From Malacoraja senta (lineage: Eukaryota): a stretch of DNA of 60,000 nt. Position numbers and translations under genes: made by a program. The DNA lies in assembly GCA_038087875.1 (NCBI GenBank), contig CM075996.1, positions 994,001 through 1,054,000 of the forward strand, given 5' to 3'. Shown one piece after another: positions 12,030-47,538 of this stretch. The notes under the pieces were generated by a model. That model saw only the letters and a list, made by a program, of their open reading frames with translations. It searched no databases and was not told the DNA's origin. Numbering within the stretch: the first letter of the stretch is position 1; every line of letters starts with the position of its first letter.

Positions 12030-12229
12030 NNNNNNNNNNNNNNNNNNNNNNNNNNNNNNNNNNNNNNNNNNNNNNNNNNNNNNNNNNNNNNNNNNNNNNN
12101 NNNNNNNNNNNNNNNNNNNNNNNNNNNNNNNNNNNNNNNNNNNNNNNNNNNNNNNNNNNNNNNNNNNNNNNNNNNNNNNNNNNNNNNNNNNNNNNNNNNN
12201 NNNNNNNNNNNNNNNNNNNNNNNNNNNNN
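12030..12229. other. Assembly gap (200 N)
   Basis: Run of N. Confidence 1.
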
Positions 12230-13303: not shown

Positions 13304-13389
13304 TATATATATGTAGTAGATATAGATATAGATAGATATAGATATTATATATGTGTGTACTTGTGAGCATGTGTGTGTACACTTGAACT

Positions 13390-14506
13390 ATGTTTACTTT
13401 TGTGTTGTGCTGCAGCAAGTAAGAATGTCATTGTTCTATCTGGGACGTATGACAATGAAACACTCCTGACTCTTGACTCTGCTTCCATTTTACTCATAGA
13501 GTCACACAGAGTGGAGTCAGGCCCAACTTGCCCACACCGACCAACATGCCCCCTCTACACTCGTCCCACCTGCCTGAGGTCAACTCCTATCCCTCTAAAC
13601 CTATCCTCTCCATTTACTTCCTGAAGATAAACAAATTCTCATCAACTTGAAACTTCTCGTAAACTTGAAACAGATCAGTAATGCAATTAATGAAAGTTTT
13701 CAATTACAAAATTATGCAAAATTCAATAGCATTAATCACAATGTCTCCTAGATAAATCATTTCACTTGGTAACAGGGCTAAACTGTACACAGTTCCTGGG
13801 CTGGTAGATGCAAGGATCGGCAATATCTGATCCATTACCGCTCCAAGTGGTCCATTCTTTTCCCAGAGAAGAAAATGAGAATTAAAGGGAGAGTGAAATA
13901 GGCATGGAAATGGCAAGTTATTGAAACGCCACTCAGAACCACAATAGACAATCGGTTCAGGAGTAGGCCATTCGGCCCTTCGAGTCAGCACCACCATTCA
14001 ATGTGATCATGGCTGATCACACTGATCAGAACCAACTCCAGAGGCTTGTCTCAATGGCAACCTCGATCCACCACTAGCCAAGAAGTGGTCTCACTGTCAG
14101 TCGAGTGGGTAGGCAGCATATCCTATGCCTAAACGCCAGCTTCAACATTAGCCCTGGTTTAAGTCTGTGACCTTTCTCCTTTTTATCTTTGTTCTCTTGG
14201 CTTCCAAAACTCACTGCTTCTCACATCCCTATCCTTTCCCAAACATTGGCATCTATGCTATTACTAGCCTTCGCCCAATAGTCTGGAGTTCTCCCCTCAC
14301 CTCTCTGCACTTCTGCCTGCAGCTAGTTGAACAGCTGCCAGCAACTCAGCTTCTGGCCTGTCTTGTTGAAGCTTGTTGCGTGAAGATAGATGCCTTCAAC
14401 ACCATCCTGTCCACCGACTAGGACCTTTCATGGAAGCATGCACCTGTACTCGCAGGTCTCTGTTCTTCAACACTCTCCAGAGCTCTTCCATAAGCCTTTC
14501 AGTAAG
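13390..14506. repeat. Local duplicate of 19198-20336
   Basis: Collinear, high-identity direct copy ~5.8 kb away, including unique exon sequence. Confidence 0.95.
13618..13862 (-). pseudogene. Duplicated copy of the DUF4347-like exon 19448-19692, with an in-frame stop
   Basis: EKNGPLGAVMDQILPILAST...IEFCIIL* (TAT>TAA); same GTAAAT donor and broken acceptor as the other copy. Confidence 0.75.
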
Positions 14507-14986
14507 CAGTTTATTTATTGCAGGCAGAGAGTTTATTTAAAGGATTCGTTGGCAATAATAGATGAATTGCTGCCTCCAATGACAAACTTTAATTCTGTTT
14601 CTTCCTGTATAGAGGCTACCTGACTTACCAAGAATCTGCTGTTATTTGTGATTATATTTCAGAATTCCTGCACCTGCAGCATTTTATTTTTTAACAACTT
14701 AGCTACGCTGCAGGATTCAGGCTGGCTCGGCAAAACCAAGCCCATTGTCAGCTCACGAGGGGTCAACCATTGAAGGCAGAGGGCAGGAGATGTTTCTTCA
14801 CCCAGAGGGCGAGTCTGTTTGGAACTGGTGACTGGAGTATGGTTGTAAGGTTAAACGCTAGATTATTGAAGACTGACACCTCTGGGATTCTGAGCAGGGA
14901 AGGGAATCGAGGAGAGTGGTGCAGAGGTGAAAGGTCTCTTGGATACATGTATAGGTGACGTTATGGTTCGAGACTCTTCTTCAGAC

Positions 14987-15050
14987 AATGGAGGTCCTTG
15001 CCCCCTTGTGACAAGGCTCATGGTTGTAACAGACATAATATTCCAGCTCA
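14987..15050 (-). pseudogene. Probable terminal exon, ELEYYVCYNHEPCHKG
   Basis: Acceptor CCCTTTTTGCTGCAG; phase-2 frame gives an L..Y.C.....C saposin/Canopy-like end. Confidence 0.45.
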
Positions 15051-15744
15051 CTGCAGCAAAAAGGGCCTTTGTTGAATGATAAAATAACATGGCACAGAAA
15101 CAGGCCCTGCTCAACCGTCACCCACACCCACTGCGGTGCCTCTCAGCGCTAATTCCATTGACACGTGACACACACATATCCCTTCCTGTCCAAATGCCTT
15201 TTAAACATTGCAATTGTTTCCGACTCCACAACTTCCCCAGGCAGCTCGTTCCAAATATTCATCACCCTCTGTGTGAAGAACATTCTCCCTCACATCTCCT
15301 TTATATTATCTCCTCTCATCTTCAATCTCTAGTTTTAGGCTCCACCGTCTGGGAAATTGATCCTCTCTGGACTATATGTGGATTAGTTATCCCTTATATA
15401 CATCCCAAATGATTTTATAAATTTCTCTAAAGTTACCATTTAGTTTCCTACCATCCAGTGAGAATAAATGCAGTCTATCCAAACTCTCCTTTTAACTTGT
15501 GCCCTGTAGTTTAGACAACATTCTGGTGAATCTCTTCTGCACCCTTTCTGTTGCTACCAGATCCTTCCTGTAGTGTGATGGCCAAAACTGTACACAACAC
15601 CCAAAGTGTAGTCAGACCTACATTTTATACAACTGCATGACATTCACACTCATACTCAATGCCTCCAATAATGAAGGCAAATAACGCTTCACCACCCTAT
15701 CTAATTTGTTTTGTTACTTTCAGGAAGCTATAGACTTGCACTCC

Positions 15745-16280
15745 AAAGTCAAGTCAAGTCAAGTGTCAAGTGAGTTTATTGTCATGTGTCCCTGGTAGGA
15801 CAATGAAATTTGCTTTGCTTCAGCACAACAGAACATAGTAGGCATTTACTACAAGGCATTCTATAAATATATACACAATGGTCAATATATTGATAAAGTG
15901 CAAATAGCAGTATTGGCTAATAAAGTTCAGTGTTATGTCTGAGCCAGGTTTAATAGCCTGATGGCTGTGGGGAAGTAGCTGTTCCTGAACCTGGTCGTTG
16001 CAGTCTTCAGGCTCCTGTACCTTCTACCTGAAGGTAGTAGGGAGATGAGTGTGTGGCCAGGATGGTGTGGGTCCTTGATGATGATGCCAGCCTTTTTGAG
16101 GCAGCGACTGTGGTAGATCCCCTCGATGGAAGGGAGGTCAGAGCCGATGATGGACTGGGCAGTGTTTACTACTTTTTGTAGTCTTTTCCTCTCCAGGGCA
16201 CTCAAGTTGCCGAACCAAGCCACGATGCAACCGGTCAGCATGCTCTCTACTGTGCACCTGTAGAAGTTAGACAGAGTCTC
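15745..16280 (-). mobile_element. Rex1/Babar LINE 3' fragment
   Basis: LSNFYRCTVESMLTGCIVAWFGN...LLPSGRRYRSLKTATTRFRNSYFPTAIRLLN; (CTTGA)n tail. Confidence 0.9.
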
Positions 16281-16394
16281 TCTGTCTCCATGCAGTATGA
16301 CCATGACTATGAATCTATGACAGGCTTGAGGGGTCAAGTGGCCACCTCCTGCTTCTGTTTTATGTTTTAATATTCTTTGTTTATGTGTCCAAAC

Positions 16395-16655
16395 CTGCCA
16401 TCGTGTTGAACTCCTTCTCAAATCTCGTCTCCATCATCCCTGGTCTGAGGAGAACTCTCTCCATATTACTGACCATTGTCACAGAGGGTCTGAGCAGGCA
16501 ATCCCTGTGGACCTCATCACCTCCTCTCATCTTTCCCAAACCATCACATGCAGAGCTGGAGATGATCTTGTGGCAAGGTTTACAGGTCATCACAGGAGCA
16601 GGGAGAAGTGAGGAGTTCCAGAATGAAGGTATTACATGGGACACAAAGCTTGACA
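16395..16655 (-). pseudogene. Cys-rich exon (261 nt; saposin-like frame VKLCVPCNTFILELL... has stops)
   Basis: Strong acceptor TTCTTCTTTCTAACCTTTTATAG; weak donor GTTTGG; frame ambiguous (the alternative frame is open, with TCKPCHK). Confidence 0.5.
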
Positions 16656-16795
16656 CTATAAAAGGTTAGAAAGAAGAAGAAATGCCTTAGACCACATTTA
16701 AGTACAAAATTATTGTTATAGAGAGGGCATCAACAGTTTATTTAACAACCTCTTATGACAGAGACTAATTTTAGCTGGGAGATCAGAGTGCTCAC

Positions 16796-16978
16796 TTGCT
16801 TCTGTAATAACAGTGACTAAATATAACTCTCTAAACTTCAACATGGACACTGTGTCCGATCCTTCAAGATGCAGATGGCAATCTTCATTTGGTCACTTGT
16901 CTTCATGACTCCTCCTTTGGGCTTGGGCTCATCTCACTCAGCACCACGAGCTCACTCAGTCTTCCTCTATAAAAGTTG
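16796..16978 (-). pseudogene. Exon, DUF4347-like C-terminal half (NFYRGRLSELVVLSEM...HLHLEGSDTVSMLKFRELYL)
   Basis: Acceptor TTTGTTTAG, donor GTGAGC; phase-2 start joins the upstream exon end AA to give AAC; internal frameshift and stops. Confidence 0.6.
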
Positions 16979-17850
16979 CTAAACAAATGCAAGACACTGT
17001 GTGTAGGAAAGAACTGCAGATCCTGTGCCAACAGTCCAGCAGCACCCTCCAATGTTAGATCCAGCACTTCCCAAGGATCTGCCTTCATCCCATTGCCATC
17101 TCGTCATCTTTATTTACGCTGAAACACAGCCGAGAGAAGGGCAGATCGCTTAAACTCTTTAAGTGCCTGACCGCCCAATTTAATTAATGAATTGGTTTTT
17201 AAACTTTAGTGATCTTTCTGTGGATTCAAAATGAAAAAAACATGAGAATCTAGTTCCGAGTGTTTCGAGTTGCGGGTCGCTGTGCAGGCATGTACTGTCA
17301 CAGGAAAGCACTGGTCATTGCTATGGTGCTACAGAGTGGAGCTGAAAGGTGAGAGCTATGTTTTACTGATGCAGCAGCGAAGGGATTAAGTTCTTGGACG
17401 GCGATCAGAGGTGGGAGCCATTCATCCAGAGTTCATATCTCACCATGACAGGTGGGAATTTAGATTCAAGTAACGAAATCGATCTGGAATACAGTGTGAG
17501 TTTCAGTAACAGCGACCATAAACGTCCAAAACTGTCATCGAAAAGGAAGGTCAGGTCCATTATTGCCTTTTACAGAAGGAAATCTGCCATATTTATCCAG
17601 TCGATCATCAGATCCACACATCTGGTTGACTCTTAGCGGCCCCCTGACACGGCCCGGGGACAAACAGCTGCATCTCATCAACAAATGAGTAAAGGAGATA
17701 GCATGGATAAAAAGGCTGAATGGCCCCCTGCATTCATGACTTTACGAGTGAAGTTTGGGTGGTGAAATGAACTCATGATACACAAGAGCCGGAGCAGAAA
17801 CGGTCACCCAGTCCAGCCTTTGTTTATGCATGATGTATCTCCACTGACAC

Positions 17851-18026
17851 ACCAGCTGACCAGGTAGTGGGCACGCCAGCTGTCCAGGTAGTGGGCACGC
17901 CACCTGACCAGGTAGTGGGCACGCCACCTGACCAGGTAGTGGGCACGCCAGCTGACCAGGTAGTGGGCACGCCACCTGACCAGGTAGTGGGCACGCCACC
18001 TGACCAGGTAGTGGGCACGCCACCTG
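17851..18026. repeat. 24-bp minisatellite CCA(C/G)CTGACCAGGTAGTGGGCACG, ~7 copies
   Basis: Direct tandem copies. Confidence 0.95.
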
Positions 18027-18639
18027 GTGATGCATGACTGGCCACCATGCAGTGCCTTGGGGACTTGAAGATGCTAAGCAAATGCAAGACATACTTTTGA
18101 TTCCAGTGCAAGCAATCCAATATTTGGAAAACGCTTTGTGATAGAAACATAGACAATGGCAGGAGTAGGCCATTCAGCCCTTCGAGCCAGCACCGCCATT
18201 CAATATGATCATGGCTGATCATCCTAAATCAGTACCCCGTTCCTGCTTTCTCTCCATATCCCTTGATTCTATTAGCCTAAGAGCTATATCTAACTCTATC
18301 TTGAAAACATTCAGTGAATTGGCCTCCACTGCCTTCTGTGACAGAGAATTCCAAGGATTCACAACTCTCTGGGTGAAAAAGTGTTTCCTCGTCCAGTGCT
18401 AAATGGCCTAACCCATGTCTTAAACTGTGACCCCTGGTTCTGGACTCACCCAACATGGAAGGCAGTATCTCATCTCACACCCAGGTTCAGGAACAGCTAC
18501 TTCCCCACAGCCGTCAGACTATTAAACACTACAACCTGAAATAAACTCTCAACTTCAATAGACTTTTATTATTATTATTATTATTATTGCACTACTATTG
18601 TTTGTTTTTTGAGTATGTGTGTATGTATGTATATATATA

Positions 18640-18870
18640 CTAGACCGTGCAGACCCGTTGGGTCTTCTCCCCCAATGCAACATTCCACCACTCACCCATT
18701 CCCTCATCGCAATATTGCACCACTCACGCATAGCCCCCAACTGCGCAGGCGCGGCTCATTACTCCTCATCCCCCAGCACTCCCTCCTCCTCCTCTTCACC
18801 CTCCCTCTTTAATCCCGAGAGAGGGAGGGGGTGTAGAGGGGGAGGGTTGGTAGAGGGAGGGGGTAGAGAG
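18640..18870 (-). mobile_element. Truncated Helitron 3' end inside a (TA)n tract
   Basis: A|CTAG on + followed by the perfect hairpin GACCC-gtt-GGGTC. Confidence 0.65.
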
Positions 18871-19150
<280 letters not shown>

Positions 19151-19447
19151 CATTGAACTTTTTTTCTCTCTCATTTACCATATTGTCTACAGTGTTCTAT
19201 GTTTACATATTGTTTTGTGCTGCAGCAAGTAAGAATGTCATTGTTCTATCTGGGACATATGAGAATGAAACACTCTTGACTCTTCCATCCTTGATTGTAT
19301 TGTTCTCTCTCTGCTTGTATTTTACTCATAGTCATACAGCGTGGAGTCAGGCCCAACTTGCCCACACCGACCAACATGCCCCCTCCACACTTGTCCCACC
19401 TGCCTGAGGTCAGCTCCTATCCCTCTGAACCTATCCTCTCCATTTAC

Positions 19448-19692
19448 TTCCTGAATATAAATAATTTCTCATCAACTCGAAACTTCTTGTAAACTTGAAA
19501 CAGATCAGTAATGCAATTAATGAAAGTTTTCAAATACAATATTATGCAAAGTTCAATAGCATTAATCACAATGTCTCCTAGATAAATCCTTTCACTTGGT
19601 AACAGGGCCAAACTGTACACAGTTCCTGGGCTGGTAGATGCAAGGATCAGCAATATCTGATCCATTACCGCTCCAAGTGGCCCATTCTTTTC
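19448..19692 (-). pseudogene. Open exon, DUF4347-like core (EKNGPLGAVMDQILLILASTSPGTVYSLALLPSERIYLGDIVINAIEL...DEKLFIFR)
   Basis: 245 nt, phase 0 to 2, no stops; donor GTAAAT; polypyrimidine tract ends in GG instead of AG (an in-frame AG lies 6 nt downstream). Confidence 0.7.
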
Positions 19693-20779
19693 CCAGAGAA
19701 GAAAATGAGAATTAAAGGGAGAGTGAAATAGGCATGGAAATGGCAAGTTATTGAAACGCCACTCAGAACCACAATAGACAATCGGTTCAGGAGTAGGCCA
19801 TTCGGCCGTTCGAGTCAGCACCACCATTCAATGTGATCATGGCTGATCACTCTGATCAGAACCAACTCCAGAGGCTTGTCTCAATGGCAACCTCGATCCA
19901 CCACTAGCCAAGAAGTGGTCTCACTGTCAGTCGAGTGGGTAGGCAGCATATCCTATGCCTAAACGCCAGCTTCAACATTAGCCCTGGTTTAAGTCTGTGA
20001 CCTTTCTCCTTTTTATCTTTGTTCTCTTGGCTTCCAAAACTCACTGCTTCTCACATCTCTATCCTTTCCCAAACATTGGCATCTATGCTATTACTAGCCT
20101 TCGCCCAATAGTCTGGAGTTCTCCCCTCACCTCTCTGCACTTCTGCCTGCAGCTAGTTGAACTGCTGCCAGCAACTCAGCTTCTGGCCTGTCTTGTTGAA
20201 GCTTGTTGCGTGAAGATAGATGCCTTCAACACCACCCTGTCCACCGACTAGGCACTTTCATGGAAGCATGCACCTGTACTCGCAGATCTCTGTTCTTCAA
20301 CACTCTCCAGAGCTCTTCCATAAGCCTTTCTGTAAGTTCTCTATAGTGTGGGGCCTTGGCAATACTCAAGGGTCTGCACATATCATGGCTGTCAGTTAAT
20401 TACCCCACTGGTCCTCCAGCGCTCTCTCCCCCCTCCCCCCCTCCCCACCCCAACATTATGGTAGTTTTGGTCACAGATTTCCCCTGTGGCAATGTGGAAC
20501 TCTCAATCCACGATTGTCTTCCATTCCAGATGAATTAGCTGCTGGACATCCTGCTCCTGTTCAGCAATCTACGCCTTGTTCTTCTCAGGAACAAAGCCAA
20601 GCCTTGTCAAAGATGCCAATTATAGTGGACTGCCGTGCATACACTGTGGCTCCCGTTGGCTGGAACCACGTGGTCGGGCAAGAGCTATTGATGCGGTCTG
20701 AGAGAATTTCAACACTAATTTTCTTGCTGCACGCTCTGCTGAAACTCGTTTTGGAGCCAGGTTAGAACAGAACTCAGTC

Positions 20780-22540
20780 ATTGAGCCATACAGCACGGAA
20801 ACAGGCCCTTCAGCCCAATTTGCCCATGCCGACCAATAAATAGAACAGTAAAGGACAGGAACAGGCCCTTCACCCATAATATCCTCGCCAACCATGATGC
20901 CAAGACTAACTCTTATTTACCTGCACACAATTCATAAAGCTCGGTTCCTTGCATATCCATGCACCTATCCAAAAGTCTCTTAAATCCCACTAATGTATTT
21001 GCTTCCAATACCACGCCTGGCAGCCCACTGCCGGCACTCACCTTCCTCTGCACCGCACATTTCTTTTAAATGTTCTCCCTTTCACCTGAAAGCATCTACC
21101 TCAACTATCTCCTCCAGCAGCTCGTTCCATATACCCACCACCCTCTGCATGAAAAACCTGTCCCTCAGTTTCCTATTAAATCTTTCTCCTCTCACCTTAA
21201 ACAGCTCTTTATTTCCCTACCCTGGGAGAGAGACACTGTGCATTCAACAGTCTGTCCCTCTGTGATGCCACCTTCAGGGAACTCCTCGAACCCTCTGCTC
21301 CCCAACGCTCCTCAACACTCCCCAGGGCCTTATTGTTCTCTGAGAAAGTCCCGTCCTGGGTGAACTTCCCAAAATTGCAGCATCTCACACTTATCTGAAC
21401 TTAACTTAATTTGCCATTTCTCGGCCCATTTGATGAAAATACAACATGGCCTTGATTTCTGCAAATGCCTGACTCACGACTGTCTGAAGACAGTAACATG
21501 CAGGATGTATCTGAGAACCTGGAGACCATGGAAGGCATGCACGCAGACATCTCTCCCACCTCACCCTCTCATCTGCTGCCCGCTGCTGAGAGAGTTTGTA
21601 GGTTCCACACTAGCCTCATCAGTCGCTGTGGAACTCACACAACCACAACAGCAACGAGTCCCGATCTCAAAGGATGGAATGAGAAGAAAATATCACAACA
21701 AGTCAGCAACCATGACTTTGTCATTTGGGAGGATATTTCTGGAAATAGCTTGTAGTTTCCTGTGGTTCAGGATGCCTGGTGTGGTGTCCGGTAGAGGCTG
21801 GATCAGAAGCTAAAACTGTCAGCACCACTGCTCCACCAGTCACTCACATAGAACAGAGAACAGCACAGCACAGGAACAGGCCCGTCAGCCACCAGGAAGA
21901 CAAATTCATTTAACTCCATATCCCTCCGTTTCGTGCCCATTCATGTGCCTGGCTAATTGCCTCAAACAGTATTATCGTATCTGCTTCCACCACCTCCCAT
22001 GGCAGCGCGTAGCAGGCGGCCATTGCTCTCTACGTATACATCTGGCCCCTCACATCTCCTTTAAACTCTCCCCCTCCCACCTTACTGTGCTCCCTAGTAT
22101 TTGACATTGACATCCTGAGAGAAAGGTTCTGACTGTCTCCCCTATCTTTCCTCTCATCATTTTATTTACTTCTTTCAGCTGAACCCACAACTTCTGGCAT
22201 TTCCTCCCCCTGTAGCTAATATCCTCTATTCCAGGCAGCATTCCGGGAAACCTCCTCTGCACCCTCTCCAAAGCCTCCATATCCTTCCTGTAATGTTGGC
22301 GACCACAACTGCACACAATACTTCAAATGCAGCCTGACCAGGGTCCTATAATGCTGCACCGTGACTTCCTGACTGATACCCACTGATGAAGACAAGCATG
22401 CCCTACGCCAACTTTACCACCCTAAGTTGTCACTTTCAGGCAGTTATGGACGAGTGCCCAAAGATCGCTCTGCACATCAATGCTCGTCAGGGTCCTGACA
22501 TTTACTGCATACGCTCCCCTGATATTTGACCACCAAAAGC
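20780..22540 (-). mobile_element. Two degenerate CR1 LINE fragments (~20780-21430, ~21850-22540)
   Basis: [19 protein letters not shown] motif; CR1 3' tails. Confidence 0.75.
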
Positions 22541-23079
22541 AATCAGGAAGTTGTGGGTTTAAGATCCACTCCAGGACATGAACACATCACATGACTGCAT
22601 GCACCTTGATGGGTGTCATCTTCCAAAAGAGGTCTTGCATCCACGATCCACTCGTGTGCTTGTGAACAATTTCATGACGTTACCTCAATGAAGGGCAGGT
22701 ATGCAGACCAATATCATCACCAATGCAGATCATTTGGTCAACATTGTATGGCTGTTTCTGCAAGCTTGATGTGCACAATTTGGCTACCACATTTTCTGCA
22801 TGCATTTGTTGATTGTAAGATTGTTCGCTAAACTACCAGCATCTGAAAAGCACGATGCAAGTTATTTTTCTTGAAACATAGAGGAGGAAGTAGTTGGGTG
22901 GCCAAGATAGTAGGGAAATAACGAGCATGGCACCCTGTCTGAAATCAGCCCTCATGGTGAGGACAGACGGACAACTGGCAGACACATGATGAGTGAGACT
23001 ATGATGGAGAAGTTCCGCTCAACACTAAAATTAGTTCACTTTGACAGGGTCTCTGTTGAAAACAGGATGTAACTCTTGC

Positions 23080-23150
23080 CTGCCCAATATTGAAGATGGC
23101 CACTCCATTAATGTTTAGGAGTTTTTACTTGTTGGTGAAACCAGCATTCA
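23080..23150 (-). pseudogene. Short exon VNAGFTNK*KLLNINGVAIFNIGQ
   Basis: Acceptor CCTTCCTCCCCGTTTTACAG; donor GCAAGA; 71 nt, phase 1 to 0, bridging the flanking exons exactly; one TAA. Confidence 0.65.
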
Positions 23151-23452
23151 CTGTAAAACGGGGAGGAAGGATAAATGTTGTGCAGAGTCCGGACTCACAT
23201 CTATCCCACACCAGGTGCCCATGTTCGACCCCCAGCCCTCGTGCACAACACTAAGCCAACCATCCAGTGGTTTCACTATTAATGAGATTAGCTTTTGGTA
23301 AATTCAATTCACTTAATGATTTTAATTTAAAATCCATGAACTATAAAAAGGACCATAAAAGATACAAGTTCTTTCTTTATTCCCATTGCACAATAAGCAC
23401 TTCTGATTGTCGGGAATGAATCTCTGGCAGAAACAGGAACTTGGCCTCTAAC

Positions 23453-23616
23453 CCTGCAAGGACCATGCTGCCAACATATTACGGGCTTCCCTTTCAGTCC
23501 AGTGAATGCTGTATGCTTCTCTTCCAGAAGGTTCATGCTGAAGTTCAGCATAGAATGGCCCATTCCAGTGGAGACTGGCGATAAAGGCGTCTATTGTCAC
23601 AGACTTTATTTCATCT
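23453..23616 (-). pseudogene. Open exon DEIKSVTIDAFIASLHWNGPFYAELQHEPSGREAYSIHWTEREARNMLAAWSLQ
   Basis: Acceptor TTTCTGCCTCTCAG, donor GTTAGA; 164 nt, phase 2 to 1, no stops. Confidence 0.7.
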
Positions 23617-25404
23617 CTGAGAGGCAGAAACTGTATGTACAACATTTCATGTGCATCAGTAACAAATCCACCAAATCAATTTATTTTCCCTGCACTGATC
23701 AGAACAATTATCTGTTTAAGAATGAACTGCAGATGCTGGAAAAATCGAAGGTAGACAAAAAATGCTGGAGAAACTCAGCGAGTGAGGCAGCATCTATGGA
23801 GCGAAGGAATAGGCGACGTTTCGGGTCGAGACGTTGGTGCTGAAGAACAATTATCTGAATATCTTATGACTTTTTCAGGTATGTGTGTCAATAGTATCCT
23901 GGCTTGGATATATGTTGCTGTACATTTGCTGTGAAGATGGCGGCAGTCCTGTTGCAAGGGCAGTGAGTATTCTCCTCCTTCATCTGCTCAAGGGCGGTGG
24001 GGATGAGCAGTGAATGCTGGCTCTGGGGGAGACATGATAGGAATGAAGAGAGGACATCTCAAGGTGCTCTGCAGCCAATGATGTCCTTCAGAAGGGTTGA
24101 CTTGTAGAGAGAGAGCACAGCGCGCAATAACCATTCCATCCACTTTCAAACCTCAAACTATCTTTAACCAGACTTTACCTTGCACAAACGTGATTCCCTT
24201 TATCCTGTATCTGTACACTGTGGACGGCTTGATTGTAATCATGTAAGGCCTTTTAATCATGGAAGTCTTCTTCACTGACTGGAGAGCACGCAACAGAAAC
24301 GTTTTTCACTCTACCTCGGTACACATGACAATAATAAAACTAAACTCAGCACTTTAGTTCAGTCAGGATGATTGTCTAAGTATTACTACGTCAGTACACT
24401 TGTTAAATGTTGGCTATTTCATCCTTGGACGGAGCCCGCGGCTAACGGTCCCTGGGTCGACAGAGCCCGCGGCTGGGGTCTGGGTCGGCGCCACGGAGGC
24501 GTCTGGAGAGGACCCGGCGGCGATAGTGAAGAGGTCAGTGTGGCGGTCAATGATGGCGCCGACCGACGGACGGACGAGGACGGACACGTGGAAGTGAGGA
24601 TGCCGCTGCCGGGGGAAGGAACAAAGGTGGAGCCGGCGTGGGGGGGGCGGGGGGGGGACCACCATGAGGGAGGAGGGATGGGGGGAGAACAAAGGGGCTT
24701 GGCGCAGATACTTTGTATCTTTGTAAGCGCCCTTTATGGGCGATTATTTCCAACCTTGGGTGAGCAAGCAAAGAAGTTCACTGCTACTTGTCACATGACA
24801 ATGAAGTATTCATTCATTCATTCATTCATTCATTCATTCAGACGATGAAGAGAATATCGGAGACTGCATCCATGGCGATCGCCAGGCCAGGGGGGTGAGC
24901 GACAAATATCTCCACAGGTGATTCTTAGTTCCATTAAATGTTTATTACTCCAGAGTAATATTTAACCATAACTTACAAATTGTTTATTGATAGTTTGAAA
25001 AAAAATCACATCTTTATTTGCCTGAAGAAGGGCGTCAGCCCGAACCCCGCCTGTCCACCCCCCCCCCATAGATGCTGCCTGACCCACCGAGTTCCTCCAG
25101 CACTAATGTGTTTCGCTCACCATTTCTCACCTTTGCTCACCTATTTTCTATGTTTCTATGGGTTATTGATTGGGGACGATCAGCCATGATCACAATGAAT
25201 GGCGGTGCTGGCTCGAAGGGCCAAATGGCCTCCTCCTGCACCTATTTTCTATGTTTCTATTATCTGCAGTCTCTTGTGTCTCTCTGTGTTCCTCAGACAG
25301 CTGGTGTGTAATTGTGAACAGGACCGCAGGAGACACCGATTGCCATGACTCCACTTGAGAGGTATTCTTGGGACCAGGTCACTGATACATGCTTCAAATC
25401 TTAC

Positions 25405-25574
25405 TGCCCAGTTCCTTCATAAATATTGGGTCTCTTTATATTTAGATGGCATCCCAGCGAGAGGATTTAACTGCATGTTCTATATTTTCCCAGAACTTCC
25501 ACAGACAAGGGACGTGCCAGTGACAACTGAGACAGTTATCTTAGCCACAGAGAGGAAGTTTATAAATCAAGCTT
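25405..25574 (-). pseudogene. Exon with two frameshifts (FINFLSVAKIT / WKFWENIEHAV / GCHLNIKRPNIYEGTG)
   Basis: Acceptor TTTACTGCTCCAG, donor GTAAGA; the last frame ends in phase 2, matching the next exon. Confidence 0.55.
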
Positions 25575-26313
25575 CTGGAGCAGTAAAGTATTTTATGATC
25601 AACTTCATAGAAAGAGGCCATTCATCCCACTGAATCCATGCTGACCATCAACCACCCAATTACGCGAATACTACAACAATCCCTTTTTAAAATTAGTTAT
25701 TTAATTTATCTTAGCCATTCAATAAGTCAGTGTCATACAACATGGGCCCTTCGGCTCACCCTGTCTATGTGGAACAGAACCTATACTCAGCGGGACAGGC
25801 AGCATCTCTGGAGAAAAAGGATAGGTGACGTTTCGGGTCGAGACCACCTTCTTCAGATCACATTCAAATACATATCTTCCATTTCCCCAGTTTAGCTTCA
25901 GCCCCTTTCCCCCAGTCACTGCAAGAATGCATTCCCTTTGTCCTGGCCTTCACTGCTGCCAGCTTCCTTATCCAACCCATTATCCTCCATAATGTTCACC
26001 ATCTCCAGCGTGATGCCACCAGCAGAGTCTGAGTCATACAGCATAGAAACAGGCCCTTCAGCCGAGCTTGTCCATGCTAACCAAGATGCCTATCTAAGCT
26101 AGTCCCATCGTTTGGCTGATGTCCCTCTAAACCCTCCTATCCATGTACGAGTCCCGCTGCAACTTAAAACACATTTTCCTCACTTTTCTTAGCTGTGGAC
26201 GGATTTGTTGATTGGATATATGACGCGTTCCTTTCTCCACAGATGTTGCCCAATCTGCTGAGTATTACAAGCATTTTCTGATATTTGTTCGGTAGCTTGA
26301 ATTTACAGATTAC

Positions 26314-26467
26314 TGTCTGTAGCATAATGATAGTGGTGTCCACGGAGCGATGGGGCTGTGCTGTTCCAGCCAAGGTGTCTGTGCCCCGAGACCTGCCCTG
26401 CCCTTATGCCCATCCTTCACCAGCAGTACCTCGACACATTGTCACCCCGCAACCAAAACTCCTCCAG
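26314..26467 (-). pseudogene. Exon (EVLLVKDGHKGRAGLGAQ / DTLAGTAQPHRSVDTTIIMLQT), DUF4347-like N-terminal part
   Basis: Acceptor TTTTGTTTAATAG, donor GTAATC; resembles the recalled pattern EVVVLD..RDGLAQI..ALAG...IDAIHI; frameshifted. Confidence 0.5.
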
Positions 26468-26547
26468 CTATTAAACAAAACCTGCACCTTCATTGCTAGC
26501 ATGGTGCAGGCTAGAGCTCAGGCTCGAGAGGATAAACACTCGCGTGT

Positions 26548-26807
26548 ATTTAACCAACGAAAGACATTCTGAAACTTGGTCAAGTGACAATAAAGGAAGC
26601 ACAGCCCCGGGTCCCACAAGATGCAGTGTGGATATGTGCAGTTGTGAAACAAATACCAGTCTGAAAGTCAGAAGTCACTAAACAGCTCTTTAAGACAAAC
26701 AGACTGGTATTTGTTCCTCAACTACACATATCCACACTGCATCTTATGGGACCCGGTTCCTTTATTGTCACTTGACCAAGTTTCAGAATGTCTTTCGCTG
26801 GTTAAAT
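26548..26807. repeat. Long inverted repeat / hairpin (MITE-like)
   Basis: ~110-bp arms (ATTTAACC...ACCAGTCTG / CAGACTGGT...GGTTAAAT) with a ~36-nt spacer. Confidence 0.9.
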
Positions 26808-27279
26808 GGACTATCTCTGCAGCTAGGGTTGTCAATGTCCTGAAGTTTAGGTGCCATTTTGGGTCAAGACTATGTTTCAGACTGAGTCAGGGGAGAGGGG
26901 AACTAGATGTATGAAAAGCACAAATCAAAGCCAGCCAGATTTGGCCATTTCTTACCCGCTACCCACTGGTTCCTTTACGTGGCGACTCGTACTGTACGCA
27001 AACGAAGAATCTCACTGTACCAAGAACACGTGACAATAAAGTATCAATCAATCAAGTAGGGTCTTGACCCGAAATGTTCCCTATTCCTTTTCTCCAGAGA
27101 TGCTGCCTGATCTGCTGATTTACTCCAGCTTTTTGTGTCTATCTTCAGTGTAAACCAGCTCTGCAGTTCTTTCCTACCGATGCAGAGGTTTAGAGATGAG
27201 TTTATTTGCTATAATTGTTTTGGAGGCTGAGCTGTATTCAATGAATAGCGTCCTGGCATCTTATCATCAAGTGGTCCAC

Positions 27280-27557
27280 AGTGTTGCTGCCTTACAGCGC
27301 TTGCAGCACCAAACACCCGGGTTCAATCCCGACTATGGGTGCTGTCTGTACCGAGTTTGTACGTTCTCCGTGACCTGCGTGGGTTTTCTCCGAGATCTTC
27401 GGTTTCCTCCCACATTCCAAATACGTACACGTTTGCACGTTAATTGGCTTGGTATATGTGTAAATTGTCCCTAGTGTGTGTTAATGTGTGGGGATCGCTT
27501 GTCGGTGCGGACCCGGTGGGCCGAAGGGCCTGTGCGCTGTATCTCTAAACTAAACTA
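27280..27557 (+). mobile_element. HE1-type V-SINE
   Basis: GGTTCAATCC B-box, V-domain, (CTAAA)n tail. Confidence 0.85.
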
Positions 27558-27739
27558 ATCAAGGTGGCCCAGAGTTGACTGCAATGCCAGAGAGATGGGA
27601 TGGTGTCCTCTGGAGATGTTGTACGTGAACTGAAAGGGATCTGGATTATCTGGAATCGAGGGGCAGATGTGATTCACAACCAATCATTTATTAATGGTGG
27701 ATGTTAGTCTACAGGGCGGTTTTCATTGTGACAGGTTGC

Positions 27740-28341
27740 TTGACTCTTAAAAGAACAGCTCAATCTTAATGAAGATTAGTGTTGAACATGGTGATAGACA
27801 TCCCTCAGTGTCCTGCCGAGCCAATTGATTGTTTTGATGGGGGAATAAGACAAGATATTATTCCTGTTGAGCAGTGAATATTTCTGAGCAGATTCCACAG
27901 GCTGCTCTTGCTGTGCAGCTGGCAAATCCCTTGCCATGCGACTCTGTATATATAGATGATGAACTCACCCTGTCTCTCCGTCCCCATCACTGAAACCGCC
28001 AGGGCACAGAACGATGGCCAAAGACCTTTTATGATCACTGGGGGCTTCCTAACGACCCCAGAGCTCAGGATTCTGTTTGTTATTTTTAGTTACAGGAAGT
28101 TCCATGGGACCTATCTCTTGGCAGCACTTCATTGACAGCGAGATGAAACGTCCTGTCTTTCCAATTAGCACTGCCTCAGCCGGCAGAACAAGGAGGCTTT
28201 GCTCAAACTAACTTTGGTCCCTTGGAGACATGATGAAGGGTATGACTGACTCTGAAAGTCGATCTTAATCGCACTCCGCACAATGTCCTCTCAGCTGAGT
28301 GCAGCTGACGTAAGCATAATACTCAGGTTTCTCACACAGTC
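27740..28341 (-). pseudogene. Large decayed exon encoding one DUF4347-like unit
   Basis: Frameshifted segments IMLTSAALS*EDIVRSAIK / SLLVLPAEAVLIGKTGRFISL / NFL*LKITNRIL...GEFIIYIY...LLRNIHCSTGI; boundaries uncertain. Confidence 0.45.
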
Positions 28342-28344
28342 CTG

Positions 28345-28600
28345 CAGCACAAACAGGCCCTTCGGCCCATCGAGTCCGTTCTGACCATCAAACACTTATT
28401 TACACTAATCCTACATTCCCATCAACTCCCCTACCCTCTGGAACACACCAGAGACAGAGACGGTGGCTAATGAACCTCGCTTTAGGATGTGGGTGGAAAC
28501 CGGAGCACTCGGGGGAAACTCACGTGGTCACAGGAAGAGCGTGCAAACTTCACACAGACAGTGCCGGATTGAACTGGGTCTCTGGCGCTGTGAGGCAGCC
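28345..28600 (-). mobile_element. V-SINE (degenerate)
   Basis: Reverse complement of the HE1-like head and tail. Confidence 0.7.
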
Positions 28601-29009
28601 GCTCACAAGAACCAAAAACCAGCAGGCATTTTTGTAGCAGACGTCCGCTGGTTAATGAGTGTTTAATCCTGAGAACTTTCCATAACCCAATCCTCCAGAG
28701 GTGCACATACTACAGATACCAACATCATATCACTCCACATACACCTGAACCATCCTCTCACTTTGTGGAATAATAACCAAAACATAATTAAACTAATGGA
28801 TTATATACTGTATCCCGTCAATAATGAACACCACAAAGCCTTTATTAATATTACAGCCTTGAAAAATGCTTTAAAATAAATGGGAGAATTTGAATAAAGT
28901 CCCTCGTGACCCAGGGATCCCTGTACCTCCAAGCCCATGATTTGGCTGAGGGCATATTCTGTATGTGAGACCTTGCTGTGCAGACTGGCTGCTGCCTTAC
29001 CCACACACA

Positions 29010-30275
29010 AATCATAAGTTCACAAGTGATGGGCCATTCGGCCCATTAAGTCTACACCACTATCCAATTGTGGCTGATCTATCTTCAAATCAACCCCATT
29101 CTCCTGCCTTCTCCCCATAACCCCTGACACCCGTACTAATCAAGAATCTATCTACCTCTGCCTTAAAAATATCCATTAATTTGGATTCCACAGCCTTCTG
29201 TGGCAAAGAATTCCACAGATTCACAGCCCTCTGACTAAAGAAATTCCTCCTCATCTCCTTCCTAAAGGGACGTCCTTTAATTCTGAGGCTGTGCCATCTA
29301 GTCCTAGACTCTCCCACTGGTGGAAACATCCTCTCCACGTCCACTCTATCCAGGACTTTCACCTGATCTGGACAACGACTAGGCCTGATGGGCAGCACAG
29401 TGGGAGGACAATCTCAGTCACGCGTGTGAGAGGGATCATGCGTGTGAGAGCAGAGGGCCAATGATACGCGTGGAGGACAAAGAGGCAGAGGCCGGTAGAA
29501 GAGAAGGAGAGGTTCACACAAAGCAAAGTTAGAGAGGGGTGAGAGTGCTGGATGTGACGGGAGAGCAGCGACTCAACAACTCCCGACACTCCACCTTAAA
29601 TTCTCCTTGGGAACAGTGGTCAGTGATGAATCTTGCTGCCACCATTTGGTCAGATGCAATCAGTCTTCAGTGCCAGCAGAATGATCACGGCTAGTGAGTT
29701 GGATAGCATGAAAACAGGCCCTTTGGCCCAACTCGTCCATACCGACCAAGATGCCTCACCTACAATAGTCCCATTTGCTTGCGTTTGGCCCATATCCCTC
29801 TAAACATTTCCTACCCATTGAACTTGCCCGAGTATCTTTAAATGTTGTTATTGTACCGGCCTCACCTACTTCCTCTGGCAGCTTGTAAGCACTATCCTAA
29901 GTGCAACAAAGTTGTCCCTCTGGCTCCTATTAAATTCTTCCTCTCTCACCTTAAGCCTATGTCCTCTGGTTCTTGATTCTCCTACCCTGGTTAAAAGACT
30001 CACCCTATCTCTTCCCCTCATGATTTTGTACACCTCTATAAGATCACCCCAGTGCTCCAAGGAATAAAGTCTAAGCCTGCTCAACCTCTGCCTGTAGCTC
30101 GGGCCCTGGAGTCCTGGCAACATCCTCGTAAATCTTCTCTGCAGCTTTTTCAGCGGAATGGCATCCTTCCTATAGCATGGTGTCCAGAATCAACACAGTT
30201 ATCTGCAAGTGGCCTCACCATATTCTTGTCCAACAGTAACATAATTCCCCAACTTGTAGAGTCAATGTTCTGACT
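29010..30275 (-). mobile_element. CR1 LINE 3' fragments (29010-29360, 29700-30275)
   Basis: GESRTR.H.L...G..F...RRNFFSQR and DLIEVYKIMRG motifs. Confidence 0.85.
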
Positions 30276-30493
30276 GTTGGCCATTTGCAGCTGGATTAAA
30301 CTGGCCGTGCAGAATGGAGACCATTGTTCCTCTGAGCATTTCAATCCCATTACCACAAAGTGAAAGATACGAGAGGCATTCTCTCCCTCTCTTGCTCGGA
30401 ATCCAGTTGCACAATCTTCTGTTAACCCATTGCCCGCACCCAGCCTGTACCAGCCACACACAGATTCTATCACCGTCTCCCGTGGTCTCTCAC

Positions 30494-30556
30494 CATCGGA
30501 GCTCACTCCCAGGGCCACAATGAGCAGCCAGGTAGAGCCACAAGCACCAATGACAC
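30494..30556 (-). pseudogene. Candidate signal-peptide exon (I/M)GACGSTWLLIVALGVSSD
   Basis: Acceptor TTTTGATTCTCAG, donor GTGAGA in phase 1; GTC-ATT-G would be a Kozak-like GTC-ATG-G with one change. Confidence 0.35.
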
Positions 30557-33500
30557 CTGAGAATCAAAACTGAGAAGCTGGCCATTCGGCCCTGCTGCCG
30601 TGTTGGTGTTTATAATATACACAGGCTGTAAAACTGTAAATCCTGAACCGCCATAGCCTTCTAGAATATTCCAAAGATTCAACACCCTGGAGTTGAAGAC
30701 ATTTCTTCTCATCTCTGATAGTGCTGGACCAGGGAACAACATCTCAGTCTGAAGAAGGGTCCTGACCTGAAACGTCACCTATCCGTTTTCTCCAGAGATG
30801 CTGCCTGACCTGCTGAGTTGCTCCAGTACTTTGTATCTATCTTTGGAATAACCAGCATCTGCAGTTCTTTGTTTCTCCTCTTCTCACCTCTTCCTGAATG
30901 ATCTGCTTACACTGAGACTGTCCTATGGTTCTATCTACCATGGCCATGCCTCATCTGTTCTGCTGAGTAGTGAGGCTGTTTTGCATCTTCCAATGATATC
31001 AACTCTCATTCACGTAAACCCTGGTCTGTAGAGGGTCTGTGAGGGATTGACACAGGGCAAACCGCCCCACCCCAAATATCAACCTCGTGAATCTTTGCCA
31101 TGCTCTCTGACTCACAAGTCTATCCTTTCTTGAGTAACTTGTGATGAAGGAGGCTATTCGACCCATCAGATCCATGCTAGCTACCAGCGATCATTCCCAT
31201 TGCAGCCATTCTCCTTCCACGTATTTCCCCGGTTAGAGTGTGAATGACAGCCTGGATTTCACCAAAGCCATCTACTCGAAACATGACATCTTATGTCTAA
31301 TATCAAATCCCAGCTGGGCCTTGAGGTTTGGGTTCCCTTATGGAGTATGACTAAATTAAAAACCTATGTGGTGAAGGTAATCACTTTACGCTCCAGGAAT
31401 ACCGTTTCCATGAAATCCCTCAGGATTCCTCGTGAATCTGGAGAAATGTATGAGAAAGTTTTGCGCCTGTCAAAATGTTAGGCCCGGACAACAGGTGCAG
31501 AGCTTGCAGATCAGAACAGTCTCTAACCTTGAGGTAAACAACATGTGGCCACACACGCTCTTCTGTAAATAGCATCTCCTGACATCTCAGAGGTCACTGA
31601 TGCCAGAGGAGTTTGGCCATTTCGCAAGAACCTGGTTGTAGGAGTGCAGAGCGAGACAGCAGATTTCCCCAGGCAGAAACTTTAGTCGCAAGGAAGGAGG
31701 TGGTGAATTCTATCTCCCAGTCTAGAGCGACTAGAGTCGGTAGGGATACCTCTGGCAACTGGGAACTCCTTCAGGAAAAGCCACACGGCTCTCCATCCTG
31801 TTCATGATGGAGTCTGGGACAATGGTCTCCTCAAGACTCCACCTTCAAGGGGCTGGATGGCCTCTCCTGCTCCCAGAGTGGTAAAACATTTGAGATAAGT
31901 CAGGGTAACTAAACACTCTGAGTGTAAATGCAGAGTTCACTTGTCATCATTTCCAGTATTGACCTGGTGAGGATTCCAGACCACATCCAAGACACAAAAA
32001 CAAAATCACAATGTGTGCAGGAACACCAGAGACCAGGAGCAGGAGTGGGCCACTCGGCCCCTCAAGCTAGCCCTGCTGTTCAATATGATCATGGCCGATC
32101 TGCCTCAGCCCTCAAGCCCCGCGCTGTGGCAGATACCCAAAGCTCTCAATCCTCTGACCTTTGAAAAATCGTTATACCTCCATTTTAAATACTTCTAATG
32201 AGCCATCGTCCATGGCACCCTGGAGCAGGAAATTCCAGAGATTCACCACCCTCTGCCTGTAATATATCCCATCGTTAAATGACTGGCTTACTTCAAACCA
32301 TGTCCCCTTGTTTATAACAACGACACCACTGAAAACATCAACTCCACCCTGTCATGGTTGCCTCTTATTCTTCCTCAATTCCTCTTGTTCTTCAGTGATT
32401 CTGCATTGTTACAACATATTTATGGTGTTTGGACGCTTTCCACAATCTGATGATGATAAGGTTTCAGATTTAAAGCTGCCGCTAATGCCTCGTAAATAGC
32501 TTTCTCTCCTGGGCAGGCTTGTGGTTTTACGTTGCCAGTAGTGACTCTGTGAGTCCTACACTTGCTCTGAATCAAGAGTTCTTGGCTTTGACTCGGAAGG
32601 AGAGAGATGCTGCCTCTTAGGCCTTGAACCGAAGACCCTCAGCTATTGCTATTGTTTTTCCCAATACCTATTCCAGCATCGGAGTTGCCAATATGATCAC
32701 AATGTTTGGCACAAACCTGATAATACAGTCATAGAGTCGTGGAGTTGCACAACTCAGAAACAGACCCTTGCAGGCCGAACGTGATACCTGTCCATGATAA
32801 TCTCATTTGCCCAGATCAGGCCCATATCCCTCTACTTCTTTCCTATCCAACTACCTGTCCAAATTCCCCTGACAGCTCTTTCTATTTAACCAGCACACTC
32901 TGTGTGAAACACTTGCTCCTGAGATGTCCTTTATATATCTCCCCTCTCGCATTAACCCTCTGCTATCTCGTTCCACACAGTCTCATGCAAGGAATCAGAC
33001 TCTGGTTTGTCTGCTCCTGCAACACTAAGGTCACCCCTCCACCTCCTGCGTTCCAGTTAGAAGAGAGACCATAAGCCAGGAGCAAGCTCCTAAACCCATG
33101 ATGCCGTTGCCAACCATGGTGACAATTACAACTGCCTGCACATGGCCATATCCCTGCATTCTCTGCCTGTTCATGTGCTGCCAAACTGCCTGTTAAACAT
33201 TGCGATTGTTATGCTCTCTCCATCCTCCAGCTCTGCATTCCAGGAACCGACGTTTGCCTCATAAATCTCCAATAAATTCCCATTCTCACCCGAAACCTAT
33301 GGCCTCCAGTCTTTGACATTTCCACTCTGGGGAAACAACTCTGGCTGTCTACCCTATCTATGCCTCATAATTTTATAAATTTATTTCAGGCCTCCCTCAA
33401 CCTCTGATGGTTCTCCTATCCTGGTTAAAAGTCTCTGTGCATCCACCCTATCCATTCCCCTCATGATCTATCTATACACTGCTATAAGGTGACTCCTCAT

Positions 33501-45885: not shown

Positions 45886-46085
45886 NNNNNNNNNNNNNNN
45901 NNNNNNNNNNNNNNNNNNNNNNNNNNNNNNNNNNNNNNNNNNNNNNNNNNNNNNNNNNNNNNNNNNNNNNNNNNNNNNNNNNNNNNNNNNNNNNNNNNNN
46001 NNNNNNNNNNNNNNNNNNNNNNNNNNNNNNNNNNNNNNNNNNNNNNNNNNNNNNNNNNNNNNNNNNNNNNNNNNNNNNNNNNNNN
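45886..46085. other. Assembly gap (200 N)
   Basis: Run of N. Confidence 1.
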
Positions 46086-47538
46086 ACGCAGAAACTGCTC
46101 AGTCCGTCACAGGTGATGATCTCTTCACCATCAAAGGGATCTGCAGGAGATGCTACCTGCAAAAGGCAGCTCATATCAAAGACCCACACCACCCGACCGG
46201 TGTGAAAAACCAGCAGAAGCAGGAAAACTGACCTCCATGTTTAAGAGCAGCTTCTTCCCAACAATTACAAGCTTCTCGAACACTGCACAACATGAACCAC
46301 AACGATGAGATATTATGGACTGTGTCATTTGCTGCCCGACAGATGTTTTTTACACTCGCATTCAATTTCCAGGATTTTTATTTTATTAGTTATCTGTGTG
46401 TCATTGCACTACGCTCCCATTATTTTGTTCAGAAGCCCAAAAACGTGACCTCCAGGTTCAGGAACAGCTTCTTCCCAGCAACCATCAGGCTCTTGAACAC
46501 TGCCCGACACAAACCACATCTATGAACTGTGAAGAACTATGGACTGAGTCTTTGGTTGCATTACAGACATGTTTACAGTAGTATCGTGAGTATAAATTTA
46601 CTGAAATGCAAATTAATGCATTTTTGTGTTGTTGCAATTACAGGCTTGTTAATCTACAGCAAGAAATACACCCCCACCCACACCCCCTCCCCCCGCACAC
46701 ACACCCTGCCCACACAGCCCCCCTCCCACACCCCGTCCCCCACACACAACCCCACCCTCACACAGCCCCCCTCCCACACCCCCTCCCCACACACAACCCC
46801 ACCCCCACCCCCACACACCCCCCATCCTTCCATATCCTCCCTCCCCCCGCACGCCCTCACTCCCGCCCACCCTCCACCACTGCCCACACACCGCCCTATC
46901 CGGCCCAACAATGCTCGCTGCCCCCCTCCCTCCCCTCCCCTCCACACACACCACACCCCTCCCCCACACCCCCCTCCCCACAACCCCCCCTCCACACATA
47001 CCCCCTCCCCCACACACACCCCCCTCCCCCAGACTCACACTCTCTGTGTGAAAAAGTGTTTCCCCATCTCTGTTCTAAATTGCGTACCCCTTATTCTTCA
47101 ACTGTGGCCGCTGGTTCTGGACTCCCCCAACATCGGGAACATTTTTCCCACCTCTAGAGTGTCCAAACCCTTAATAATCTTATATTTCAAAATTCTAGAG
47201 TGTACAAGCCCAGCCGCTCCATTCTCTCAAGATATGACAGTCCCGCCATCTCGGGAATTAACCTTGTGAACCTACGCTGCACTCCCTCAATAGCAAGAAT
47301 GTCCTTCCTCAAATTTGGAGACCAAAGCTGCACATACTCCAGGTGTGATCTCACTAGGGTCCTGTACAACTGCAGAATTACCTCTTTGCTCCTATACACA
47401 AATCCTCTTGTTATGAAGGCCAACATGCCATTTGCTTTCTTCACTGCTTGCTGTACCTGCATGCTTACGTTCGTTGACTGATGAACAAGGAACCCCAGAT
47501 CCCTTTGTATTTCCCCTTTTCCCAACTTGACACCATTT

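Follow-up and report, generated by a model that had tools for sequence, protein, structure and literature searches.

The protein family DUF4347 (PF14252) contains bacterial members such as Tce1 (PDB 9QPE), which is described as a putative protease of the cysteine type, with a His-Cys dyad (PMC13323088), and is matched by a DUF4347 profile with an E value of 0.0015. A list of snail excretory-secretory proteins includes a 24.7-kDa DUF4347 protein (PMC6744689), and secreted animal members of the family therefore exist. Among vertebrates, the C-terminal domain of NSMF (NELF/Jacob) is of the DUF4347 type, and ECT2L is predicted from structural models to carry the same fold. The other proteins relevant here are CNPY3, CNPY4 and CRELD, which have a saposin-like domain (DUF3456, PF11938). 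In the present work we have examined a 60,000-nucleotide stretch of the Malacoraja senta genome (hereafter the window; contig C20, positions 994001–1054000 of a 1.94-Gb genome), where nine candidate segments on the minus strand sit in the intergenic DNA separating the divergent SOX10 and KIF18 genes. A preliminary annotation (the sequence-only reading) had taken eight of these segments for the fossil of a gene with tandem DUF4347 domains and a saposin-like module. Our results indicate that the locus likely makes no protein today, and the balance tips slightly towards the segments being the remnant of a gene. That they are a remnant for which some or all of the proposed domains hold stands just short of an even chance, and the full DUF4347-plus-saposin reading is unlikely to be right.

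The eight segments noted earlier were found at the coordinates assigned to them, on the minus strand and with splice dinucleotides as described. Together with one segment added here and a local duplicate, the features are as follows.

30494–30556, minus strand: candidate first segment, added in this analysis; AG/GT scores of 4.4/4.3, phase fitting the chain, hydrophobic and signal-peptide-like in two frames.
26314–26467, minus strand: candidate exon that would form the front of putative unit 1; one stop in each frame.
25405–25574, minus strand: candidate exon; three stops in each frame; contains ILSLGC.
23453–23616, minus strand: candidate exon; 54 codons open, single copy, homologue not found.
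23080–23150, minus strand: candidate exon with a strong acceptor and a GC donor; one stop.
19448–19692, minus strand: candidate exon, core of putative unit 2; 81 codons open, GG in place of the acceptor AG, homologue not found.
16796–16978, minus strand: candidate exon; four stops in the chain frame.
16395–16655, minus strand: candidate exon, putative saposin/CNPY-like part; six stops in the chain frame, none in another.
14981–15050, minus strand: candidate last exon with a TGA end; completes a CNPY-type motif over the junction.
13388–14506, strand not assigned: local duplicate of 19197–20336; 94.8% identical over 1142 bp; the GG acceptor recurs in it, and it has a TAA stop.

An AG acceptor is present at seven of the eight originally noted segments, the exception being 19692, where a GG is preceded by a strong pyrimidine tract and an in-frame AG lies 6 nt inside the segment. 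A GT donor likewise follows seven of the eight, and the segment ending at 23080 has instead a strong GC donor. Upon splicing, the junction phases reported for the middle of the chain (2,1,0,2) and the two open exons (23453–23616 and 19448–19692) were reproduced. In the nine-segment chain all eight junctions fit one frame, with 15 internal stops distributed from the first to the ninth segment as 0, 1, 3, 0, 1, 0, 4, 6 and 0; the five upstream ones are at 26406, 25562, 25538, 25469 and 23127. The added first segment explains why the feature had been given 30556 as its end coordinate; an ATG at 30585 was considered as the start codon and rejected as repeat-derived, the surrounding 12-mer occurring 117 times in 860 kb. 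All of the segments are single-copy, save for the local duplicate of 19448–19692. Over 407 codons of the chain there are 14 stops where 24.7 are expected (p 0.011, shuffles), and in a 205-codon core one stop where 13.5 are expected, with none of 20,000 shuffles as low; both of these deficits are inflated because the segment boundaries were hand-picked by eye.

A resemblance to a known family is found across the last junction, where the chain has a candidate for the C-terminal motif of the CNPY3/CNPY4/CRELD group. For this motif (an acidic helix followed by Leu-x-x-x-Leu-Cys), a profile was built on two or three exons of the CNPY/CRELD type taken from this genome. Against it the last two segments, once spliced, score z 3.8–4.0 (reached by 1 of 800 and 1 of 1500 null pieces), whereas unspliced they fall to z 1.0–1.2, and in none of 60 trials did the best of 30 random joins reach the score of the true junction. 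The resemblance has its limits, as the frame concerned has six stops, the CNPY-like genes of this genome are on other contigs, and the N-terminal CNPY motif scored only z 0.6. In genome searches with DUF3456 and SapB_1 the window was not listed, and the Pfam cut-offs for SapB and DUF3456 were not reached.

The sequence-only reading held further that the translations repeat the DUF4347 pattern three times. At most two candidate units could be recognised: the motifs that had been cited correspond to the fronts of these two units and to both of their ends. The comparisons were based upon a bacterial DUF4347 profile of 114 members (all eight that were checked matched PF14252) and a profile of 55 NSMF domains. 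The spliced chain matched neither profile in hmmsearch or hhalign, and the PF14252 cut-off of 24.6 bits was not reached by single segments, by read-through frames or by the spliced chain. Frameshift-tolerant scores against bacterial DUF4347 were z 0.3–1.4 for unit 1 and z 1.2–1.7 for unit 2; in a forward test the two units scored z 1.43 (36 of 400) and z 1.18 (54 of 400), and their reverse complements z of about 0. Intact NSMF, which served as a control, scored z 4.3–5.6 and retained a median of z 1.5–3.1 after simulated decay. The unit scores are thus in the low to middle part of the range of decayed homologues, and the test is underpowered because decayed NSMF itself reaches only these medians. 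The scores are not significant (p about 0.07–0.14). At its best, unit 2 aligns with the profile in the register proposed earlier, and ILSLGC in 25405–25574 aligns with the DUF4347 cysteine motif (hhalign P 0.39, not significant). A candidate Cys motif is seen in unit 1 only, and neither unit has a His-Gly where the alignment would put it. The two units are also unlike each other (z 0.19), with no internal repeat detected by blastp. A single-sequence model of the 81-residue exon, made without an alignment, was all helix (pLDDT 66) and uninformative, and a genome search with PF14252 gave no candidates but also missed the controls, so that it too is uninformative. A further 94-codon open frame in single-copy DNA (27805–28089, minus strand) appears DUF4347-like by eye; it was outside the top 600 of 30,618 scanned windows for any profile.

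The putative units resemble by eye the C-terminal domain of NSMF. However, an intact NSMF gene lies at another place in the genome (contig C11, 27.17–27.20 Mb) and has one such domain, and the chain in the window has no match to the NSMF profile (z −1.4 to 1.4). NSMF matches PF14252 with E values of 0.003–0.04 in four of five proteins tested, under the cut-off, and in hhalign its domain matches bacterial DUF4347 (E 9e-4), with the Cys motif kept and Gln at the His position. The predicted model of this domain has template modelling (TM) scores of 0.71–0.83 to ECT2L and bacterial members (0.82–0.83 for ECT2L). Because Gln stands for His, the domain of the NSMF copy in this genome may be an inactive cysteine-protease fold. 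In the main text of the openly accessible papers searched, we found no mention of NSMF as a caspase-like fold or structure prediction, of ECT2L together with NSMF, or of sox10-kif18b synteny; the candidate gene may nevertheless be annotated in a supplementary table. ECT2L itself was set aside by the sequence-only reading, and this holds in so far as the protein requires F-box and RhoGEF domains and neither was matched on the minus strand between 12.3 and 36.5 kb; motif searches recovered no ECT2L sequence.

With regard to the decay of the locus, all 62 sampled words of 16380–17000 are present in two sequencing runs of this organism, which represent two samples within a single study and of which one may be the source of the assembly. 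No RNA run was listed for these words, which is uninformative as to expression. Eight other organisms contain 13–26% of the sampled words, and four of these other organisms, compared over 16330–17300, are diverged by about 5–6%. The interval compared holds the last two large segments, the other seven being outside it. In run X3, for which 40 of 48 counted substitutions are listed and the remaining eight are assumed to lie past the last listed place, the exon sequence (444 bases) has 20 changes as against 28 in the remaining 527 bases (p 0.66). Of the 20 listed exon changes three are synonymous, as compared to about 26% if change were neutral. Among the changes listed, X3 has gained two stops and lost one, and it has lost the acceptor at 16979. 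Frameshift indels inside 16395–16655, among those listed, are +7 in X17 and +10 and +2 in X21. For the two segments compared, the earlier view that the sequence is dead rather than live is upheld by neutral change and by lesions; both features of a unitary pseudogene are thus seen over 16330–17300, and no intact copy was found in the same genome for the three segments searched. The suggestion of a lineage-specific loss did not hold, as the four other organisms show neutral change along with lesions of their own, and the loss, if any, would be older. The 1.1-kb direct duplication differs from 19448–19692 at 12 of 243 bases and from the remainder at 22 of about 900. The two copies have the GG acceptor in common and differ by five synonymous and seven other changes (one of them a stop), from which the duplication is judged likely to postdate any loss of function.

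A number of results weigh against a gene of the kind proposed, and they are considered here with the explanation that they favour, viz. that no gene ever existed at this place, AG...GT pieces of the ordinary single-copy DNA upstream of SOX10 having fallen into a chain by chance and the domain likeness being produced by eye. This possibility is a substantial one, although we place it somewhat below even. When the 81-residue open segment was searched against 1,835,955,588 representative proteins, the only match (P0001) was a spurious one, rejected as a tandem-repeat artefact. In a word-based search that covered longer proteins only, none of 59 candidates for this segment, and none of 45 for the 54-residue segment, proved to be a match; an NSMF exon used as a query in the same database gave 866 matches of 869 candidates, and vertebrate proteins are therefore present in it. 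In Pfam none of 11 pieces matched, and 18 read-through frames of the minus strand between 12.3 and 36.5 kb gave one irrelevant repeat match only. Exact look-ups (0 of 10), a PDB search with the open segments and metagenome scans with these segments yielded nothing, two metagenome loci with a short match (61–62% GC) having been rejected, and Atlas recognition was low (1208; best 0.78). Frameshift-aware local alignment gave chance-level scores. A search of this genome with three segments recovered only the segments themselves, the local duplicate and one chance match, a weak one on contig C10 (E 0.037) that was rejected as it had no collinear partner in 140 kb. The outcome that had been named as counting against the gene, viz. 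neither a profile match nor a homologue, was thus obtained in the protein databases and in this genome; other vertebrate genomes were not covered. The target segments were also outside the top 600 of the 30,618 scanned windows for any DUF4347 or NSMF profile, and in spliced profile scans the region was mid-rank. With three settings of the exon cost, a phase-aware chain builder placed the 17-kb interval containing the segments 44th, 62nd and 78th among 100 windows, with the SOX10, KIF18 and NSMF windows among the top ranks; because of this placing, the phase-matching of the chain is not above chance by splice and frame features alone. Equally good phase-matched chains occur in most windows, and pseudo-exons are abundant (1,529 at similar splice thresholds in 800 kb sampled, both strands). 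A joint model ranked this interval 41 and 52 of 91 but is powerless, as intact NSMF failed in it too. Frame-free exon-like composition gave p values of 0.10 and 0.22 for the segments and below 0.01 in all five held-out real genes, the splice weights in this test and in the chain builder being assumed values; the GC and purine steps gave p values of 0.20 and 0.45, and the codon scores of the 205-codon core gave z of about 1. When free splicing was allowed in every 17-kb window, the CNPY motif ranked 11–31 of 91, and with the last exon shifted by 1–2 nt the score was still z 2.5–3.3, because the test allows frameshifts. Among the signs of a coding past, the CNPY-type score of the fixed chain is the strongest, yet it loses significance once the search is taken into account. 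In 16941–16957 all three relatives covering the interval (X3, X15 and X17) are 5 nt shorter, and the phase match of 16796–16978 may for this reason be accidental. A chance chain accounts for every blank search and for the neutral divergence. Single-copy regulatory DNA is moreover expected upstream of SOX10, one study placing regulatory DNA about 47 kb upstream of mouse Sox10 and describing a zebrafish search that spanned 100 kb (PMC2518861). However, the junction-dependent CNPY-type score and the nearly stop-free 205-codon core fit less well with chance, and several weak tests (codon, composition and forward DUF4347) all lean towards coding.

Two further explanations retain a gene but differ as to its frame or its state. 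It is improbable, though worth stating, that the segments are the remnant of a gene from a family outside those tested, its domains having been misread and its last three segments having been coded in another frame or in a mosaic of frames. In the proposed frame 10 stops interrupt these three segments, whereas when spliced (16894–14987, minus strand) they provide 140 open codons over two junctions in an alternative frame (p 0.002, shuffles), and no profile passes for the domains that were proposed. On the other hand, the middle segment of the 140-codon frame has no Pfam match, the listed changes of X3 are not enriched in synonymous ones when read in this frame (4 of 20), the frame is broken in X17 and X21, and the CNPY-type score lies in the other frame. 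That the gene is live and its lesions are assembly errors, as the two fully open segments might suggest, is very improbable indeed: both same-organism runs contain all the sampled words of the region that has 10 of the stops, X3 is changed at only one of these 10 (among listed changes), and the relatives carry further lesions.

The explanation that we put forward, with slightly less than even confidence, is that the nine segments are the decayed exons of a gene located between SOX10 and KIF18. Such a gene would have encoded a protein of about 460 residues, either secreted or resident in the endoplasmic reticulum (ER). Tentatively, this protein would have had two DUF4347-type units, sharing the cysteine-protease-like fold of NSMF and ECT2L, followed by a module of the CNPY/saposin type at the C terminus. 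Because a Cys motif is seen in unit 1 only and the His motif in neither, and since NSMF has Gln at this position, such a product would more probably have been a binding scaffold than a protease. The death of the gene would precede the split from the sampled relatives, which are 5–6% diverged, and the 1.1-kb piece would have been duplicated after it. It is doubtful, to a slightly greater degree than the full domain reading itself, that this was a third vertebrate gene of the DUF4347 fold besides NSMF and ECT2L, secreted and CNPY-tailed, which is dead here and intact but unannotated in some distant lineage.

In the surroundings of the segments, a minus-strand SoxE gene of three exons spans −42 to −55 kb in window coordinates, with POLR2F at about −97 kb, and a kinesin-8 gene, for which KIF18A is the nearest solved structure, begins at about +71 kb. 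We take the SoxE gene to be SOX10 based upon its sequence and its position beside POLR2F; the segments are 57–73 kb upstream of its first coding exon. A head-to-head (dimeric) SoxE-like site is present at 16703–16717, in the 140-bp gap between two segments; as support for an enhancer it was rejected, two of its places being changed in X3. An Arfaptin-domain gene, possibly PICK1, is found on the same contig at C20:8559643–8566674, 7.6 Mb from SOX10. In mammals PICK1 is directly upstream of SOX10, and the separation seen here would point to a rearrangement near the window. The window contains two runs of N (12030–12229 and near 45900–46100, 400 bases together), and as the first is 1.2 kb past the local duplicate, the assembly may be incomplete there. 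Lastly, the translation of a short-period tandem repeat at about 34945–35250 matches Pfam Cornifin (E 1.6e-9), which is most likely a repeat artefact.

As it stands, the locus is dead sequence of uncertain origin. Phase-matched exon chains arise easily by chance in this genome, and claims based upon them therefore need a homologue. If an intact orthologue exists, it would represent an undescribed vertebrate gene in which a saposin-type module is combined with a cysteine-protease-like fold, and it would provide a handle on the role of the DUF4347 domains in NSMF and ECT2L.

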